From the NCBI RefSeq assembly GCF_902781305.1, contig NZ_CACZIV010000003.1: a DNA stretch of 64,000 nucleotides. One strand, given 5' to 3'. This DNA comes from Selenomonas ruminantium (lineage in GTDB: Bacteria > Bacillota > Negativicutes > Selenomonadales > Selenomonadaceae). Below, one piece after another: positions 4,495-61,550 of this stretch. A program made the translations under genes and the position numbers. Within the stretch, counting starts at the first letter, position 1, and each line of letters begins with the position of its first letter. The notes under the pieces are model-generated. The model saw only the letters and a program-made list of their open reading frames with translations. It was not told where the DNA came from and ran no database searches.

Positions 4495-7086
4495 TCAGAC
4501 CCGGTAATCTACGCCATCAACTGCTTCTGCTGATGACTGAACACCAGCAGCTATATTTTCGGTCTCTTCTCCATAATCTTCCACATTCCCTAAATTCCGC
4601 ATACTGCCGTTGCTGCTGTGTCCCTGATTTTGCTGCCATGCCTGCTGTCCTTCTCCCTGAGGCAGCTGACCATCCGTGAACCCGGCATAGACATCAACAT
4701 TATCCACTTTCAGTCCCTGATTATTAAGTTCCTGCTTAAGCTGTACCAACGTGTTTTCAATAATCGCTCTTACCTGAGCGTTGTCGCTATGGAATGAAGC
4801 ATTGACCGCACCATTAGCACTAACCGATACTTTAAGGGTCAACTCGCCCAAATGGTCAGGGTGGAGTTTTATGACCATCTGCGTATCTTCGCCTCTCCTC
4901 AATAATCTTGCCTGTTCCACAATCTGCCGAGGAACATTGAAATCTTCCTGTAAATTCTGCGTTTGATTTGTCTCATTCGTCATTTTAGACCCTGTCAGAC
5001 TGTCATTCAGACTTTGCTGGAACATAGCAGCAGATTCAGGATTGCCAGCCGGAACAGACTTCGACTGGAAAGGACTCTTATCTCCTACAGCTTCTTCAAC
5101 CAGCTGACTGACCATTTCTCCCTCTGCAGTGGTCACCACCTTAGTCTCGGGAAACGCCTGCTGATTTTGTCGGTACAAATTCTGCTGAAGATTATCCTGC
5201 ATCTCCATTGCCGGCTCTGTCATCGGTACAACATCTTCTACCGTTATGCTGACACCTGACAAAGGATTATTCACAGAAACAGTCTCTTTTTTCCCAACAG
5301 GCGATGTTTGCACCATTTCCTCAGGAAGTATCACTTTTCCTGTTTCCTGTATGATTACTGAATCCTTCACGCTTTCAGCAGGCATAGACGGCATAGGTTC
5401 TTCCAGAATCATCTCTTGTACTGGTATTTGCTGTATCGCTGAATCCTTCACCCGGCCAACAGGCATGGACGGCATCGGCTCTTCCGGAATCATCTCTTGT
5501 ACTGGTATTTGCCGTATCGCTGAATCCTTCACCCGGCCAACAAGCATGGACGGCATCGGCTCTTCCGAAATCATCTCTTGTGCTGGTACCTGCTGTATCA
5601 CTGACTCCTTCACCCGGCCAGCAGGCATGGACGGCATCGTTTCCTCGCTCTGCTCAAAAAGTGCCATGCCCTTGACGTCCTGTCTTTCCTTACCATTGTT
5701 CAGGATTGTCCCCTGCAGATTATTAAGATTTTCCTGTGGCCGCTCAACCTCTTCAGACATATTATTTTGCACATCTGTCAAAAAGATGCCTCTTTGCCCT
5801 TGCGAAAAAGCCAATTGTAAATTTTCCTGAACCGTCTGATTCGCTAAAAGAGCCCCTTTGCCCTCTTCATTCTGCAGAGCAGCCTGATTTACTAATGGGA
5901 CATTAGACCAGCCCTCTTTTTGCAAAGGAAATTGCTGACTACTTCCCTGAAGATTTCTTAACGGCAAATCCTGCTGCAACACTACACTGTTTTCCTGAAG
6001 CACTGCTCTATTTGCCAACTGATGATTGTTCAGCTGTATCTCCAGCATCGTTGCCGGTTTTGTCATCCGGCCCATTCCCCAACCTTCTGCCGGTTGAGCT
6101 GCTGATGTCATTTCCTGCCTCTGAATTCCCATCTCAGGCAAGTTTTCTACTGGCTTTCCATCGCTCAGTTTTACCTGCTGTCCTGAAAGCATCGCCAGGA
6201 AATTTTTATTTTTCTGAATCTCAGCTCCTGACTGCGGCAACAAACTTTGCAGATTTACATCAGTAGCGTTTTTTACCTGTGGGTATGATTCATCTGCTGT
6301 CAATGCAACTTCTGCCTGTGGAATCTGCTTATCTGATGACAGTGCCTCTTTGACCTGCGAAATATGTTCATCCGCTGACATTGTTACTTCTACCTGCGGA
6401 ATCTTCTTCTCTACCGTCAGTGCATCTTTCATCTGCAGATTTGGGCCATCCGCTTTTGGTGTAGATTTTGTTTGCAAAATCTGCCCAGCTGTTGTTAGCG
6501 CAACTTTCGCCTGCGGGATTTGTTCATCAGCCTTTAAAGTAGATTGCCTCTGCAAAATTTGGGTATCCTCTACATGCAGACTTCGTTCAACCACTGCAGG
6601 TGCATCTTTTTCCTGTGGAATTTGTTCGTCCACAGTCAATGCAGATGTTTCATCTGCAGTAAAATTCACCACCGCCGCGATAGCTATATCCAACGTTTCT
6701 GTTTCTTGTTTTCCAGCAGTGTCATTTTCACGGTTTTGGCTTTTCGTCCCCTGCGAGTTTTTTTCCCAATCCTTAGCTGTCTTCCCTGACTTCGGTTCCT
6801 TCCCCAGCTTACTATTTAAAGCAGCCTCCGTTCCTTCTGGCATATCGTCTTTTATATAAGCTTCCTTAGCGTCAACATTTCCTTGTATACTTCCCTGTGC
6901 CTCTGTCGGCGATTTTGCCATTTTTCCTGTTACTTCTTCTCCTGCTTTTCCCAAGACCTCATCAAATGAGCCCTGAGACGCACTGGCAGATGCCTTGTCC
7001 ATTTTGCTGACCATCCGTGTATTTTGCACTTTGTTTACAGCACCAGCCTTTGGAGAAATAGCCATTACATTTGCTGCATTCACCAA
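4495..7086 (-). CDS. fliK: Flagellar hook-length control protein FliK (long, repeat-containing)
   Basis: C-terminal LHPDHLGELTLKV domain; long low-complexity N-terminal region; upstream of flgD. Confidence 0.88.
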   Translation of the reverse strand: MVNAANVMAISPKAGAVNKVQNTRMVSKMDKASASASQGSFDEVLGKAGEEVTGKMAKSPTEAQGSIQGNVDAKEAYIKDDMPEGTEAALNSKLGKEPKSGKTAKDWEKNSQGTKSQNRENDTAGKQETETLDIAIAAVVNFTADETSALTVDEQIPQEKDAPAVVERSLHVEDTQILQRQSTLKADEQIPQAKVALTTAGQILQTKSTPKADGPNLQMKDALTVEKKIPQVEVTMSADEHISQVKEALSSDKQIPQAEVALTADESYPQVKNATDVNLQSLLPQSGAEIQKNKNFLAMLSGQQVKLSDGKPVENLPEMGIQRQEMTSAAQPAEGWGMGRMTKPATMLEIQLNNHQLANRAVLQENSVVLQQDLPLRNLQGSSQQFPLQKEGWSNVPLVNQAALQNEEGKGALLANQTVQENLQLAFSQGQRGIFLTDVQNNMSEEVERPQENLNNLQGTILNNGKERQDVKGMALFEQSEETMPSMPAGRVKESVIQQVPAQEMISEEPMPSMLVGRVKDSAIRQIPVQEMIPEEPMPSMPVGRVKDSAIQQIPVQEMILEEPMPSMPAESVKDSVIIQETGKVILPEEMVQTSPVGKKETVSVNNPLSGVSITVEDVVPMTEPAMEMQDNLQQNLYRQNQQAFPETKVVTTAEGEMVSQLVEEAVGDKSPFQSKSVPAGNPESAAMFQQSLNDSLTGSKMTNETNQTQNLQEDFNVPRQIVEQARLLRRGEDTQMVIKLHPDHLGELTLKVSVSANGAVNASFHSDNAQVRAIIENTLVQLKQELNNQGLKVDNVDVYAGFTDGQLPQGEGQQAWQQNQGHSSNGSMRNLGNVEDYGEETENIAAGVQSSAEAVDGVDYRV
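5340..5650. repeat. About 4 tandem in-frame 81-bp (27-aa) repeats in fliK
   Basis: ga(a/c)tccttcac anchor at 5360, 5441, 5522 and 5603; peptide EEPMPSMxVGRVKDSAIxQIPVQEMIx. Confidence 0.92.
6268..6642. repeat. Degenerate 39-bp (13-aa) repeats in fliK
   Basis: ALTVDEQIPQEKD / TLKADEQIPQAKV / ALTVEKKIPQVEV / TMSADEHISQVKE / ALSSDKQIPQAEV / ALTADESYPQVKN. Confidence 0.75.
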
Positions 7087-22928: not shown

Positions 22929-23360
22929 AAGACGGAGTGGAGGGGCGGCAGTAACTTTCGTCCGCTTAGACAAGCTTGCCAAACGCTTCCGAAAGCCACT
23001 GCTGCGCCTCCCCTCCTCACGTTTTATCTAATCCACAATGCAAAGCAGCGCCCCCGACCTCCCCTATCCGCGCGCCTTAGTATATCGATGTAAGCCCCGC
23101 GTAATGTACAACTAAGCCCGATGGGGTTGGTGATGTTTTCCGCAGCTTTTGACAAGCTTGTCTATGGCGAAGGAAAATATTACCAGCCCCACCGGGCGCC
23201 TTAGCACATCAATGTAAGCACCATTGTAATGCACGCAATAAGCCCGGCGGCTGATAATGCCTTTCCGCAGCTTTTGACAAGCCTGTCTATGGCGAAGGAA
23301 AAGTATTATCAGCCGCCGGGCGTCTTAGCACATCGATGTAAACCGAACTCCGAACCCGGA
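22929..23360. repeat. Structured hairpin-repeat array, locus 1 (1 inverted unit, 1 truncated unit, 2 direct units)
   Basis: Direct units 23116-23197 and 23242-23321; inverted unit 22934-23016; same motifs as locus 2. Confidence 0.9.
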
Positions 23361-23361
23361 C

Positions 23362-25623
23362 TTATTTCATTCTCTTAATGGTGAACCGCCCCGTCTCCAC
23401 TTCTTTACGATGGCAATGCGGACACTCATTCTCAATCAGCCCCGTATACCCGCACACCGGATCGCGGTCCACCGGATGGTTGATGGAAAAATACCCCATA
23501 TCCGCATCATGCATAGCCCTAACCAGACGCTCAAACGCCTTCACATTCTTCGTCGGGTCGCCATCCATTTCAATGTAGGCGATATGTCCGGCATTTTCCA
23601 GGGCATGATACGGGGCCTCAATGCGAATCTTGTCGATGGCCTTAATCGGATAGTACACCGGCACATGGGAACTGTTGGTCATGTAATCCCTGTCCGTAAC
23701 GCCCTCAATCACACCGTAAACCTTGCGGTTGGAACGCTGGAACTGACCAGCGGTGGATTCTGCCGGCGTAGCAAAGCAGGACCAGTTCATATGTTCTTCT
23801 TCCGTGTATTTATCCATGCGCTCACGCAGATGGCCGACAATCTTGAGGCCCAATTCCTGCGCCTCAGCACTTTCACCATGGTGCTTGCCGATAAGGGCCT
23901 TAAGGCACTCAGCCAAACCGCAGAAGCCTACCGAGTAGGAAGCATGCTTCAACACGTCCTTGATGCTGTCATCCGGACGCAGCTTTTCGCTGTCCATCCA
24001 AACGCCCTGCCCCATAAGGAACGGATAGTTATAGACATGCTTTTCCGCAATCACCGCCAGGCGGGCCTGGATATAGTCATGGCTGATTTCGATATATTTA
24101 TCGTAAAGCTGCCAGAACTTATCCATATCGCCCTTGGCTTCCAACGCCAGCTTGGGCAGGTTAATGGTCGTAAAGGCAAAGTTGCCGCGGCTGCCGGATT
24201 CTTCCGGGCCATTGATATTGCTCATCACGCGGGTGCGGCAGCCCATCGTGGCTACCGTGGAATTGTAATCCCCCGGCTTATAGTATTGCAGATTGTAAGG
24301 TGCGTCGATGTTCACAAAGTTCGGGAACAGACGCTTGGCGCTGACCTTGCAGGCCTGCTGGAACAAATCGTAATTGGGGTCTTCGGGATTGTAGTTGACC
24401 CCGGCCTTTAACTGGAATACCGAAATCGGGAAAATCGGCGTTTCCCCATTGCCCAACCCCGACCAAATGGCATTTAAGACCTCACGGGTAGCCAAGCGGC
24501 CTTCCGGGCTTACATCCATGCCGTAATTCAAGGAGCTGAACGGCACCTGCGCACCTGCACGGCTGTGCAGCGTATTGAAGTTATGAATCATCGCCTCCAT
24601 GGCCTGATGGGTTTCTTCCACCACATCCGCACAGGCCAGGCGATAAACATTGCGTGCCAAACGGCCTGCTTCATCCACCGGCAGCTGATAAGCGTCAGCC
24701 ATCACGCTTGTCAAAGCCTTTTCAATCGCCTGTACGGACTCTGCCGCCCGCGGGTCTTCCTTCTTTTCGGTATAACTGCAGGCACTAAAATCCATGGCTG
24801 GCTTAAACACAGCCTTAAACTCTTTTTCCGTACCGAAATCGTGGTCGTCAAACTGATACATGAGGGCCTTATGTGCCTCGCTGATAACCGCCTTGCGGAA
24901 GGACTTGCGCACGCCGTCGGCCATGGCATAGTCAAAGGCGTTGATGGCCTGGCCGCCGAACATATCGTTCTGATTGGACTGAATGGCAATTGCGGCCAGC
25001 GACGCATAAGAACGAATGGAATTCGGCTCACGCAGGAAACCATGCCCCGTGGAGAAACCACCTCTAAAGAGCTTCAACAGGTCAATCTGACAGCAATTAA
25101 AGGTAATCAGTGAGAAGTCCTTATCGTGAATATGAATCCAGTTCTCCTTGTCCGCTTCCCGGAATTCGTCCGTGAGCACATAGTTATCCACGAAATGCTT
25201 GGCACCCTCAGCGCCCAGTTTCAGCATAATGCCCATGGAAGCATCCGTATTGATATTGGCATTGTCACGCTTGGAATCCACATCTACAGCATCAGCAAAG
25301 AAAATATCCTTATAAGAGGACATGAGGTGTTTCTGTGCAATACGGCGTTCCGCATGTTTCTGGCGGTAGGTGATATACTTCTTGGCGATATCGTAGAAAT
25401 CATACTTCATGAGTTCCTGTTCTACAATATCCTGAATTTCCTCAACGCTGACGTTTTCCCGGTCCTGAATATCCCATTCAACCTGACTGGTAACTTCGTC
25501 CACATCTTTTTCCGTCATCTTCTTGCCAGCATCTTTATTGGCGCCTAAAATCGCATTGTAGATTTTTTCCCGGTTATAAGGCACCGTGTGCCCAGAACGC
25601 TTCGTAACTGTTTTTAAATTCAT
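23362..25623 (-). CDS. nrdD: Class III ribonucleotide reductase NrdD with ATP-cone; no C-terminal glycyl-radical motif
   Basis: ATP-cone VTKRSG, IHIHD, FNCCQ, finger-loop TMGCRT, ATPAES, HPVDRDPVCG...CPHC; no RxxGY before the stop. Confidence 0.9.
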   Translation of the reverse strand: MNLKTVTKRSGHTVPYNREKIYNAILGANKDAGKKMTEKDVDEVTSQVEWDIQDRENVSVEEIQDIVEQELMKYDFYDIAKKYITYRQKHAERRIAQKHLMSSYKDIFFADAVDVDSKRDNANINTDASMGIMLKLGAEGAKHFVDNYVLTDEFREADKENWIHIHDKDFSLITFNCCQIDLLKLFRGGFSTGHGFLREPNSIRSYASLAAIAIQSNQNDMFGGQAINAFDYAMADGVRKSFRKAVISEAHKALMYQFDDHDFGTEKEFKAVFKPAMDFSACSYTEKKEDPRAAESVQAIEKALTSVMADAYQLPVDEAGRLARNVYRLACADVVEETHQAMEAMIHNFNTLHSRAGAQVPFSSLNYGMDVSPEGRLATREVLNAIWSGLGNGETPIFPISVFQLKAGVNYNPEDPNYDLFQQACKVSAKRLFPNFVNIDAPYNLQYYKPGDYNSTVATMGCRTRVMSNINGPEESGSRGNFAFTTINLPKLALEAKGDMDKFWQLYDKYIEISHDYIQARLAVIAEKHVYNYPFLMGQGVWMDSEKLRPDDSIKDVLKHASYSVGFCGLAECLKALIGKHHGESAEAQELGLKIVGHLRERMDKYTEEEHMNWSCFATPAESTAGQFQRSNRKVYGVIEGVTDRDYMTNSSHVPVYYPIKAIDKIRIEAPYHALENAGHIAYIEMDGDPTKNVKAFERLVRAMHDADMGYFSINHPVDRDPVCGYTGLIENECPHCHRKEVETGRFTIKRMK

Positions 25624-28727: not shown

Positions 28728-28833
28728 CGTCCATCTCCCTCTCGCAAAATTTAATCTTTCTCTAAGAATATCTAGACAATACTTTACGCTTTTAACCGAT
28801 TTTTGTCAACTTTTTACCAGCAGTTCTAGCCAC

Positions 28834-29415
28834 AAGGCGGAGGGAAGGGGAGGCAATAACTTTCGTCTGCTTAGACAAGCTTGTCAAACGCTGCCGAAAG
28901 CCATTGCCCCCCCTTCCCTCCTTAGGTTCAGCACCACACGATGTAATGTTCGCAATAAGCCCGAGGTGACTGGTGATGTTTTCCGCAGCTTTTGACAAGC
29001 CTGTCTATGGCTAAGGAAAATATTGCCAGTCACCTCGGGCGCCTTTAACACAACTATGTAATGTACGCAATAAGCCCGGAGGGGCTGGTGATGTTTTCCG
29101 CAGCTTTTGACAAGCCTGTCTATGGCGAAGGAAAATATTACCAGCCCCTCTGGGCGTCTTTAACATCACTATGTAATGTACGCAATAAGCCCGCGTGGCT
29201 GGTGATGTTTTTCCGTAGCTTTTGACAAGCTTGTCTATGACGAAGGAAAAATATTACCAGCCACGCGGGCGTCTTTAACTCTACTATGTAACGTACGAAA
29301 AAAGCCCGGTGGCTGATAATGCTTTCCCGTCGCGTTTGGCAAGCCTGCCTAAGCAAAGGGAAAGTATTGTCAGCCACCGGGCGTCTTATCATATAGATGT
29401 CAACCGAACACGAAC
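28834..29415. repeat. Structured hairpin-repeat array, locus 2 (1 inverted unit and 4 direct units, 115-nt period)
   Basis: Stems start at 28959, 29074, 29189 and 29304; inverted unit 28839-28921. Confidence 0.95.
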
Positions 29416-30333
29416 TTACTTAGCCACAGCCGGACTAGCTGCCGCCTTCTTCTTATCCCCCATCTTACGCAGCACAACCCAGAGCGGGCTGGCAATGAAG
29501 ATGGACGAATAACAGCCGCTGCCGAAACCAATCAGCAGGGCAAACGCAAAGTCTTTCGTCGTTTCGCCGCCGAAGAAGTACAGGGCAAAGGTCGTAAACA
29601 TGACCGTAAACACCGTGTACAGGGAGCGGGTAAGCGTCTGGAACACCGAGGTATTCACTAGATGGTTCACATCGCCGCCGCGGCGGAAATGCAGTTTGAG
29701 GTTCTCGCGGATACGGTCAAAGATAACGATGGTATCGTTGATGGAATAACCGACAATCGTCAAGAGAGCCGCGATAAAGGAAGAATCAATCTGCCGTCCC
29801 GTGAAGGAGAAGACCGCCAACACGATGAGAATATCGTGCACGAGCGCAAGCACTGCCGCCACACCAAAGCGCCATTCAAAGCGATAGGCAACATAGGCGA
29901 TGATGAGTGCCCAGGACACCACAAGCGCCAATACCGCATTGGTAATCAGCTCGCCGCCGATGGTTGCACCGACCTTTTCCTCACGCAGCACATCGTAATT
30001 ACCCACATCGGTCTTAATCGCCGCCATAACGTCTTTGCGCTGTGCTTCTTCCATATCCGTCGTACGAATCATGACGTTTTCGGCTTCCGTCACGCCGGAT
30101 TCTGCACCAGTGAGCTGAATCTGCGAACCTTCCAAGCCGAACTTAGCAAGGCTCGTGCGCACCTCAGCAATCGCCACCGGGCGCTCAAATTTCAAGTCGA
30201 TAATGGTACCGCCAGTGAAGTCGATACCGAAGTTAAAGCCCCGGGTAAACATGCAGATAATCCCGGCCACAATGATGACTGTGGAAATGGCAAACCAAAT
30301 CTTGGAACGTCCAGCAATATCAAGCTTGTTCAT
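29416..30333 (-). CDS. secF: Protein translocase subunit SecF
   Basis: GIDFTGG, HDIL, GYSINDTIVIFDRIRE. Confidence 0.96.
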   Translation of the reverse strand: MNKLDIAGRSKIWFAISTVIIVAGIICMFTRGFNFGIDFTGGTIIDLKFERPVAIAEVRTSLAKFGLEGSQIQLTGAESGVTEAENVMIRTTDMEEAQRKDVMAAIKTDVGNYDVLREEKVGATIGGELITNAVLALVVSWALIIAYVAYRFEWRFGVAAVLALVHDILIVLAVFSFTGRQIDSSFIAALLTIVGYSINDTIVIFDRIRENLKLHFRRGGDVNHLVNTSVFQTLTRSLYTVFTVMFTTFALYFFGGETTKDFAFALLIGFGSGCYSSIFIASPLWVVLRKMGDKKKAAASPAVAK

Positions 30334-36521: not shown

Positions 36522-36620
36522 AAAAAATAATAGCCTCCTCTTTCTTGGCAGGAAATCATCCATCGTCACCAAGAAAAAAGAAGCCATTCACTTATCCAAT
36601 ATGTCGGTCATGCTCCATCT

Positions 36621-36692
36621 TTCTTGTAGACTGTGACAATTTACGGTTGCCTGTAGAAACGCCCGCACCTTATCAGCGGGCTTATACAAGAA
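36621..36692 (-). ncRNA. Purine (guanine-class, C74) riboswitch aptamer
   Basis: P1 UUCUUGUA/UACAAGAA, P2 GCCCGC/GCGGGC with GAUAAGG loop, J2/3 GUUUCUAC, L3 CCGUAAA; a downstream hairpin (about 36533-36593) can sequester the GAGGAGG RBS. Confidence 0.9.
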
Positions 36693-36858
36693 TTGAATAA
36701 CATGAGCATAACAAAGATTAGGACATATGTCAATTTATTAGAAAATTAGCAATCAAATGCCAATGAAAAATTATTCTTCTGCCCATAAGCAGGATTTTGT
36801 GGTACAATGGTATAATAGTATGATTATACATTGCTTGATTGCCGATTTGGAGGAATTT

Positions 36859-60882: not shown

Positions 60883-61353
60883 TAAATTGCAGTTTATCGG
60901 TTAGTTCGTGTTGAAGGTATCCCGTTCATACGTTGTCAGGGGCGAACGGGGAGTAATTTTTCTGTTTTCCGCTAAACGCCCCCCTCGTAAAGGCGAACTG
61001 TCCAGTTACCTGCGCCGGGCAGGCCAACGGCGCTCCTTTCAGCATGTTTTCTTAGCATTTTCTTATCGGGGCCGGCCTTCACTTCGTTCAGGCAGTCGCT
61101 CCCTACAGAAAAATCACTCCCCGTTCGCCCCAAGCTGCGGATTATGCAATCGGCGAGAACTCGTTGCTCTCGTTACAAGAACATCGATGTACTTGCCGCT
61201 TGTCACTGCGAAAATGCCGTCTTATACGGACATCGCTTAAGGCGGAGGTGGTGATGCTTTTCGCCGTGGAACGACTGTCCTTACCACCTCCGCCCCAACT
61301 GAGCTGTGACAATCATAATAAAGCTCGCAATAACATCGATAAACCGCAATTTA
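60883..61353. mobile_element. Putative non-autonomous TIR element (MITE-like) with nested hairpins
   Basis: 17-bp terminal inverted repeats taaattgcagtttatcg / cgataaaccgcaattta (1 mismatch); internal 27-bp IR 60939-60965/61105-61131; no transposase. Confidence 0.6.
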
Positions 61354-61398: not shown

Positions 61399-61473
61399 TG
61401 GTGACACCTACGGGATTCGAACCCGTGAACCCGGCGTGAGAGGCCGGTGTCTTAACCGCTTGACGAAGGTGCC
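61399..61473 (-). tRNA. tRNA-Glu (CTC)
   Basis: Cloverleaf; anticodon stem ccggc-ctCTCac-gccgg; GGTTCGAATCC; encoded CCA. Confidence 0.96.
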
Positions 61474-61475
61474 GA

Positions 61476-61550
61476 TGGTGACGCCTACGGGATTCGAACC
61501 CGTGAACCCGGCGTGAGAGGCCGGTGTCTTAACCGCTTGACGAAGGCGCC
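61476..61550 (-). tRNA. tRNA-Glu (CTC), second copy
   Basis: Identical to the first copy except one compensated acceptor-stem pair. Confidence 0.96.

Follow-up and report, generated by a model that had tools for sequence, protein, structure and literature searches.

Hairpin repeats interspersed in bacterial genomes have been described mainly in Proteobacteria and a few Gram-positive pathogens. ERIC, Correia (NEMIS), RUP, BOX and bcr1 are imperfect palindromes of 100-150 bp that are genus-specific and co-transcribed with upstream genes; they are reported to affect termination and mRNA stability, and they keep a terminal inverted repeat sequence, often with a target duplication (TA for Correia). 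The REP survey literature did not report REPs from the Negativicutes, and it also described CGTC-type REPs without a dedicated transposase (PMC3733652). Polarity tied to replication is a signature of single-strand DNA transposition by IS200/IS605 elements (PMC6006769). How hairpin repeats spread without a dedicated transposase is an open question in the field. Here we examine an array of long hairpins beside secF of Selenomonas ruminantium, a member of the Negativicutes. The array lies in a 64,000-nt stretch of contig NZ_CACZIV010000003.1, called the window below, whose numbering is used throughout; other genomes carry G numbers, and contigs C numbers. An earlier note, made from the letters of the window, had described a single local intergenic array of a family it did not recognize, and had offered three readings: a processed multi-unit non-coding RNA (ncRNA), a single-stranded DNA (ssDNA) substrate for a HUH/Y1 enzyme, or a protein-binding lattice.

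A profile made from the eight units of the window was used to search the 2.79-Mb draft genome, and 145 non-overlapping units were found in 80 intergenic clusters. Thus, instead of a single local array, the units form a family dispersed through the genome. The complete genome G012 contains about 30 units. BLAST searches with a unit as query gave matches in 12 of 23 congeners and in none of 17 genomes of other genera. Likewise, a covariance model built from 76 units, run on 121 genomes from 40 genera of the taxonomic family, matched only its own genus (0 of 39 other genera), and the apex motif, sought in 185,579 species genomes, gave at least 95 stretches, all from S. ruminantium among the matches listed. 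Rfam at its gathering threshold gave no family for the units, the window's matches being two tRNAs and a purine riboswitch only, and at a permissive threshold there were sub-threshold matches to generic microRNA-precursor hairpins only. Plasmid and phage collections gave no match to the units, so that a plasmid or phage carrier was rejected, and a literature search turned up no description of such a repeat in Selenomonas. The earlier note was thus right in supposing the family to be an unrecognized one. We conclude with very high confidence that the array is one cluster of an S. ruminantium-specific family of dispersed hairpin repeats; it is not a special intergenic RNA gene but one site of a clade-specific repeat.

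The secF-side array consists of four head-to-tail direct units and one inverted variant unit (28834-28926) with a different foot; Tandem Repeats Finder scored 28941-29387 as a tandem repeat of period 115, with 3.9 copies and 85% matches. Every unit gives a hairpin of 25-30 bp. The plus strand of the 601-nt array region folded at -313 kcal/mol, versus -179 kcal/mol in shuffles (z = -23.7), and the minus strand at -296 kcal/mol. A direct unit begins with a short lead ending in TAAG, followed by a stem of 25-26 bp, an apex of ~30 nt around GACAAGCYTGTC and the stem complement; after these come a bulge of three bases, CTT and a tail whose last letters are ATGTAA. Sequence and fold confirmed that the outer stems of the four direct units differ in each and yet pair, and that unit 3 has gained one pair and lost another (Table 1). 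The inverted unit is a 27-bp hairpin that folds best on the minus strand and aligns with other units of its type. A second cluster, at 22929-23345, has an identical layout, with one inverted variant and two direct units, so that the previous count of eight units in the window, five in the secF-side array and three in the second cluster, was correct. From its sequence, the GATGTAA-bearing linker at 28927..28948 is probably the remnant of a lost unit. In the nrdD cluster, the linker between the inverted unit and the first direct unit (23040-23100) carries a stray unit tail, CGCGCCTTAGTATATCGATGTAAG, left over from a deleted unit.

Across the family, units are ~105-120 bp long and are made up of a lead, TACGCAMTAAG, a stem of 26-30 bp, the conserved ~30-nt apex around GACAAGCYTGTC, and a tail, CTTAGCATATCGATGTAA. 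The lead marks the limit of conservation on one side; on the other the limit is CTTAGCATATCGATGTAA, which ACC often follows. The apex, nearly a 16-bp palindrome, is the most conserved part of the unit. Two types were distinguished in the draft genome: type A, with 117 near-full copies and the foot TAAGCCCG...CGGGCGYCTT, and type B, with 17 copies and the foot TAAGGAGGG...CCCTCCGYCTTG. A six-codon mini-open reading frame following the Shine-Dalgarno-like TAAGGAGGG of type B was considered and dropped, as the frame is not conserved in type A. All 19 mixed clusters had one head-to-head junction, a tail-to-tail junction was never seen, and the lone inverted unit was mostly of type B. Type B units are invariably placed at an end of an A array, which they face head-to-head. 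Within arrays, the tail of one unit runs directly into the lead of the next with no extra spacer. Because complete units abut, the period of 115 nt is just the unit length; in other arrays of the genome the start-to-start spacing was 102-134. The exact period stressed by the earlier note is therefore no conserved spacing, selection on spacing was not borne out, and a protein-binding lattice at 11 helical turns loses its basis because the period varies.

Shortened relatives of the units were also seen. Miniature units in G008 (positions 2760-2860 of the sequence piece examined from contig C15) and in G012, downstream of nrdD, keep the lead, foot and tail and are missing the inner stem and apex. 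The G008 miniature has a 12-bp stem, a 14-nt loop and feet as in the family, and the G012 miniature is an almost fully collapsed unit; the miniatures are either internal palindrome deletions or an ancestral short form. Within 60883-61353 of the window, a short hairpin at 61238-61297 that the unit profile missed has a B-like foot (GGCGGAGG...), an A-like inner arm (GGTGATGCTTTTCG) and a different apex. Tail-like CATCGATGTA motifs lie around it, at 61182-61195 and 61333-61345, and it sits in a larger folded element with a 27-nt inverted repeat (60939-60965 with 61105-61131). It resembles a degenerate or recombined relative of the family.

Covariation was scored in the alignment of 76 units, with shuffling and sliding as controls. 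Of the 25 consensus pairs predicted, 18 had changed on both sides. Paired cells amounted to 96.5%, versus 82.2% in shuffled and 41-50% in slid alignments, and 245 double-change cells were observed versus 51.5 expected. Within the draft genome, 20 of 33 stem pairs showed at least two Watson-Crick types. Covariation is thus strong, and the excess of double changes bears out the proposal that the stems covary under selection on structure over sequence; the proposed apex change from GACA/TGTC to GGCA/TGCC was also real. Homogenization by arm copying or template switching is unlikely as the sole cause of the pairing, since most copies retain two G.T wobble pairs and an asymmetric apex.

The model strand folded better in 130 of 134 copies, by about 9 kcal/mol. 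Two G.T pairs conserved in the inner stem, together with one T.G in the apex, are the source of this bias; the inner-stem pairs, which arise where the 5' arm has GTGATG and the 3' arm TATTAC, were present in 67 and 93 of 117 copies. Outside these three consensus wobble pairs, the mismatches were strand-symmetric (58 G.U, 50 A.C and 54 others). The earlier claim that one specific strand folds therefore holds in that the plus strand does fold better, but nearly all of the bias comes from three inherited wobble pairs, and the remaining mismatches favor neither strand. Such a balance is not the pattern of locus-by-locus RNA function. We read these data to suggest that the hairpin may be selected in propagating lineages, and that resident copies then decay without strand preference. 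A replication mutation bias behind the G.T asymmetry was rejected by reasoning: C-to-T changes on the G-rich strand would place G.T on the opposite strand.

How arrays are built was judged from identities among units. Adjacent type A units were 72% identical, versus 71% between clusters, and for only 5 of 77 array units was the nearest relative in the same array. Some pairs of units from separate contigs are up to 96% identical, and blocks of two units are shared by distant loci. Local tandem duplication was rejected as the origin of the arrays; because neighboring units are not sisters, arrays grow by the flush arrival of unrelated units or by block transfer. Comparison of orthologous loci among S. 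ruminantium genomes, a check that the earlier note had suggested, showed that unit number does differ. Orthologous loci displayed an in-register 113-bp insertion/deletion that leaves a chimeric unit, an extra middle unit, and a half-unit footprint, and the secF array of G012 has one B and three A units versus one B and four A units here. In G017 (contig C72), at the ortholog of the array at C36:9251 of the draft genome, an additional ~1.6 kb separates the gene end from the remaining unit and includes a 186-codon open reading frame with a WCX domain. The last 100 nt of C36 match several contig ends of G007 at 94-95%; this is another repeat, probably an insertion sequence, that breaks assemblies.

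The units are strongly associated with gene ends. Of the 80 clusters, 35 are flanked by convergent genes, an arrangement that makes up 13% of all neighboring gene pairs; another 33 have co-directional neighbors and 6 divergent ones. Typically 0-20 nt separate a cluster from the nearest stop codon, and the neighboring genes are ordinary ones, encoding SecF, NrdD, a sulfatase and a polysaccharide deacetylase, for example. With a canonical terminator defined as a stem of at least 6 bp followed by at least 5 T in 8, a terminator was found beyond the cluster at 2 of 66 unit-bearing 3' ends versus 266 of 1041 gene ends without units. In four element-free congeners, secF has a textbook terminator immediately after the stop codon, and nrdD has one in three of four. 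A tail such as UUAKUGCG comes after the type A hairpin on the mRNA strand and averages 4.2 U in 8; about a third of the units have at least 5 U in 8, and gene-proximal units are no richer in U than the others. On the secF mRNA strand, six T follow the hairpin of type A unit 4, a terminator-like arrangement that is also found in G012. The units, then, occupy the terminator slot at gene ends, and they plausibly serve as terminators. The NrdD open reading frame (23362-25623, minus strand) ends 16 nt from a type A unit, and the Pfam NRDD profile matched it only to position 534 of 562; insertion of repeats at the nrdD end could bear on whether the glycyl-radical C-terminus of NrdD is missing.

To relate unit orientation to replication, the leading strand was called by GC skew; 78% of the open reading frames are on the G-rich strand, and in G012, a complete genome, the skew switches sign at dnaA, as expected. 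The model strand of type A units was opposite to the leading strand in 49 of 52 clusters of the draft genome, in 14 of 16 clusters of G012, with the switch at dnaA, in 19 of 20 clusters of G022 and in 27 of 27 clusters of G002. For the four genomes together, type A units ran against the leading strand in 109 of 115 clusters. Type B units were on the opposite strand in every callable case (13 of 13 in the draft genome and 4 of 4 in G012). At genes that run against the fork in co-directional contexts, seven clusters followed the fork and one followed the gene; two of the seven represent one orthologous locus. Clusters located between divergent gene starts agree with the fork as well. Better survival of units with the weaker hairpin on the lagging-strand template would fit type A and fails for type B. 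That replication sets the polarity of the units is suggested by these results, not conclusively.

We assign a probability of about 0.6 to the reading that the array is a non-autonomous, structure-dependent mobile hairpin that spreads into terminator slots; the family is probably selfish. Non-autonomous copies have spread to ~80 sites, each 0-20 nt after a stop codon, and new units land flush against residents to give head-to-tail arrays of unrelated units; after insertion the copies would decay neutrally. On the mRNA a unit may act as a 3' hairpin, a terminator or stabilizer that replaces the lost canonical terminator. Spread might proceed through an ssDNA hairpin at the replication fork, which would explain why only well-paired copies propagate, leaving compensatory changes, and why the fork fixes orientation. 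We hold a replication-coupled single-strand step tentatively, at even odds or somewhat below. Among the three readings of the earlier note, the ssDNA hairpin substrate fits best because orientation is replication-polar; the RAYT/Y1 partner attached to it was not there. A more complete version proposes a Negativicutes hairpin element that moves without a Y1/RAYT transposase, by a fork-coupled single-strand mechanism, in two strand-specific forms, and in terminator slots. The better-folding strand would be on the leading-strand template for type A and on the lagging-strand template for type B, and the terminator slot would be taken at roughly one in ten transcription-unit ends. Taken jointly, these propositions are unlikely to hold.

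Several observations weigh against mobility of this kind. A search for a gene that might mobilize the units found none. The Y1 transposase profile PF01797 matched fragments only in the draft genome, none of them adjoining units; it had no match in G012 or G007, both of which are unit-rich, and it was present in G003 and G009, both of which are without units. Filled and empty sites could be compared only where remnants or diverged sequence remained, with no clean pair to define the target site and exact ends, and a crude target-duplication test (n = 13, approximate ends) gave a longest shared flank word of 3.5 nt, versus 3.9 nt for shuffled pairs. Gene direction and replication direction are confounded, with 78% of genes co-oriented; because most genes run with the fork, fork polarity is largely indistinguishable from an orientation antisense to the upstream gene, and the conflict cases are few and come from related genomes that share loci. 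Finally, the strand on the lagging-strand template has A.C mismatches in type A and G.T pairs in type B, and therefore a single rule of strand-specific recognition is not obvious.

The absence of PF01797 from G012 and G007, together with the unit-free Y1 loci, led us to reject a RAYT/Y1 partner, and the co-occurring RAYT/IS200 Y1 gene proposed earlier was not found. The full-length Y1 genes of relatives (G004, G008 and G013) encode 158-161 residues and are followed by a 373-codon open reading frame, an intact tnpA-tnpB layout as in ordinary IS200/IS605 insertion sequences. When the unit profile was run against 14 Y1 loci, nhmmer gave no match, even at E = 1. The RAYT model thus fails its defining test, because no Y1 gene has units beside it and the unit-rich G012 and G007 have no such gene. 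The Y1 fragments of the draft genome lie at C42:5-295 and, frameshifted, at C8:89306-89603.

The strongest alternative is that the repeats are host-selected RNA elements, and that their benefit as terminators or 3'-end stabilizers drives spread and upkeep, as reported for some REP and ERIC copies. The position of the units just after stop codons, the depletion of canonical terminators at unit ends, the ordinary terminators at the orthologous secF and nrdD ends of element-free congeners, and the hairpin followed by a moderately U-rich mRNA tail (~4 U in 8, with six U at the secF-proximal unit) are all as this explanation would have them. In 7 of the 8 conflict cases, though, orientation went with replication and not with the gene, as many as six units in an array would be redundant as terminators, and the gene-proximal unit is no richer in U than the rest. 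Further, the type A strand that folds better is antisense to the gene upstream, G.U is not favored among single mismatches on either strand, and some clusters lie between divergent gene starts. We consider host selection unlikely as the driving force; an RNA role is compatible with a mobile hairpin and may be a secondary, exapted one.

The units might instead be duplex or cruciform sites for a host protein, modeled on gyrase and IHF at the BIMEs of E. coli, with the apex as the binding site and the arrays serving to organize the chromosome or absorb supercoiling at gene ends. The conservation of the nearly palindromic apex is in keeping with such a site, the strand symmetry of mismatch decay is what a role of both strands or of the duplex would produce, and orientation is chromosome-wide and polar. 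Against these points, spacing is not conserved, binding needs no covarying stem of 26 bp, no candidate protein was identified, and a family missing from half of the congeners cannot be a core chromosome function. This explanation is improbable.

Two further explanations are very improbable. A dedicated multi-unit ncRNA precursor, transcribed from the plus strand and processed to hairpin RNAs of ~80-115 nt, could draw on the better folding of that strand through G.U pairs and on a weak promoter-like TTGACA-18-GAAAAT that a simple scan found inside some A units, but the promoter-like spacing is absent from a second A subtype, two inherited wobble pairs account for the strand bias, the opposite strand is the one that folds in type B caps, Rfam gave sub-threshold microRNA-precursor matches only, and the unit is found behind stop codons at 80 unrelated gene ends in an orientation that follows replication, so that this reading of the earlier note is disfavored. 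In chromosomal integrons the bottom strand of attC is on the leading-strand template, and the units resemble attC-like single-strand sites for an integron-type tyrosine recombinase, in clusters left without cassettes, in that structure is conserved above sequence, units lie behind gene stop codons, and the strand that folds better is the upstream gene's bottom strand and lies on the leading-strand template; the RYYYAAC / GTTRRRY core sites, however, are missing from the unit feet, housekeeping genes rather than cassettes flank the clusters, the units abut with no open reading frame between them, and no integrase adjoins them, although a genome-wide search for an integron integrase (IntI) was not made.

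Table 1. Repeat units and adjoining features in the window, with the strand and basis of each assignment.
Feature	Position	Strand	Basis or remark
Type B unit, inverted array cap	28834..28926	-	Foot TAAGGAGGG...CCCTCCGYCTTG on - strand; apex homologous to type A apex
Short linker, B to first A unit	28927..28948	+	Tail-like GATGTAA motif, by comparison with unit tails
Type A unit 1	28949..29061	+	Lead, 26-bp stem, apex, stem complement, tail
Type A unit 2	29062..29176	+	Sequence, repeat finder, fold, profile
Type A unit 3	29177..29291	+	Outer stem one pair shorter, inner T-run one pair longer
Type A unit 4, adjoins secF stop codon	29292..29406	+	Sequence, fold
secF, gene upstream of array	29416..30333	-	Pfam SecD_SecF_C, E = 6.7e-62
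Sigma-70-like promoter of next gene, just past B cap	28781..28809	-	TTGACA, 17 nt, TAAAGT
Type B unit, second cluster, downstream of nrdD	22929..23019	-	Sequence and profile
Type A unit, second cluster	23104..23218	+	Sequence and profile
Type A unit, second cluster, 16 nt from nrdD stop at 23362	23230..23345	+	Sequence and profile

The promoter at 28781..28809 is native sequence outside the repeat. Elsewhere in the window, tandem repeats at 5358-5639 (period 81, 3.5 copies, 90% identity) and 6284-6454 (period 39/78) are of in-frame size and probably encode repeat domains of a surface protein. The minus strand has a purine riboswitch (61.6 bits) at 36607-36709 and two tandem tRNA genes, 97% identical to one another, at 61402-61550.

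Within the single rumen clade to which it is confined, the family is both abundant and diverse. Near-complete replication polarity, direct arrays of unrelated units with a variant cap, and the apparent replacement of canonical terminators have rarely been documented together. If transposase-less, fork-coupled spread is true, the clade would be a tractable system for studying REP-like spread without a transposase. In practical terms, the family explains much of the fragmentation of S. ruminantium assemblies, the units provide a strain-typing marker because their number varies at orthologous loci, and annotators should be cautious not to call such hairpins ncRNA genes.

Among described systems, the Selenomonas repeats have much in common with REP, BIME and REPIN sequences (PMC3116915, PMC3733652, PMC6006769). 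Both are high-copy and extragenic, mostly downstream of convergent or co-directional genes; both occur as single units, as head-to-head pairs of two subtypes, and in clusters; both form long hairpins in which compensatory changes are common; and both are patchy across close species. The extragenic position behind open reading frames that is typical of REPs (PMC3733652) is seen in the gene-pair counts given above. There are also differences. A REP is 20-40 bp, with a stem of 5-13 bp and a loop of 2-20 nt (PMC3733652), whereas the Selenomonas hairpin is ~90 nt with a stem of 25-30 bp. In a REPIN, two inverted conserved REP cores surround a variable spacer (PMC3116915); here the feet are likewise conserved on both arms, but the apex is best conserved and the arms between drift. 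The GTAG/CGTC tag of REPs (PMC3733652) is not shared: the units are without GTAG, and CGTC, found in only about 55%, is not conserved, the 3' bulge being GTC in 50 and GCC in 36. Head-to-tail arrangements are negligible in REPs (PMC3733652), whereas type A arrays are head-to-tail and only the A-B junction is head-to-head. Each REPIN population has a flanked RAYT gene (PMC3116915), and no RAYT gene is flanked by Selenomonas units. By size, tag, head-to-tail arrays and the absence of a flanking RAYT gene, the family fails REP membership.

Elements of the IS200/IS605 group (IS608, ISDra2) and their miniature derivatives are hairpin-dependent, as the Selenomonas units appear to be. Their orientation is tied to replication, with the lagging-strand template used (PMC6006769), and the Selenomonas units are likewise polar. 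Neither needs terminal inverted repeats of fixed sequence, and target duplication is evident in neither, as far as the crude test on 13 units goes. Unlike the single long hairpin of the Selenomonas unit, IS200/IS605 elements have two different short subterminal hairpins plus tnpA; further, the units have no similarity to the tnpA-tnpB elements of relatives (E = 1), and there are unit-rich genomes without any Y1 gene. Because the arms covary instead of being conserved as terminal repeats, the family is not a classical MITE of a DDE transposon. The ERIC-type families, compared here from general knowledge, keep their terminal repeats, whereas the Selenomonas arms drift and covary, and the units form abutted, replication-polar direct arrays with a variant cap. 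With intrinsic terminators the units share their place after the stop codon and a G+C-rich foot with a U-containing tail after it on the mRNA strand, and they sit where congeners have canonical terminators; the Selenomonas stem, however, has two to three times the length, most units have a weak U-tract, and the units occur in tandem as one family over 80 loci. In sum, the family belongs to the class of interspersed structured hairpin repeats of the REP/BIME-like kind, and is distinguished by its replication polarity, its A/B cap, and its occupation of terminator slots.

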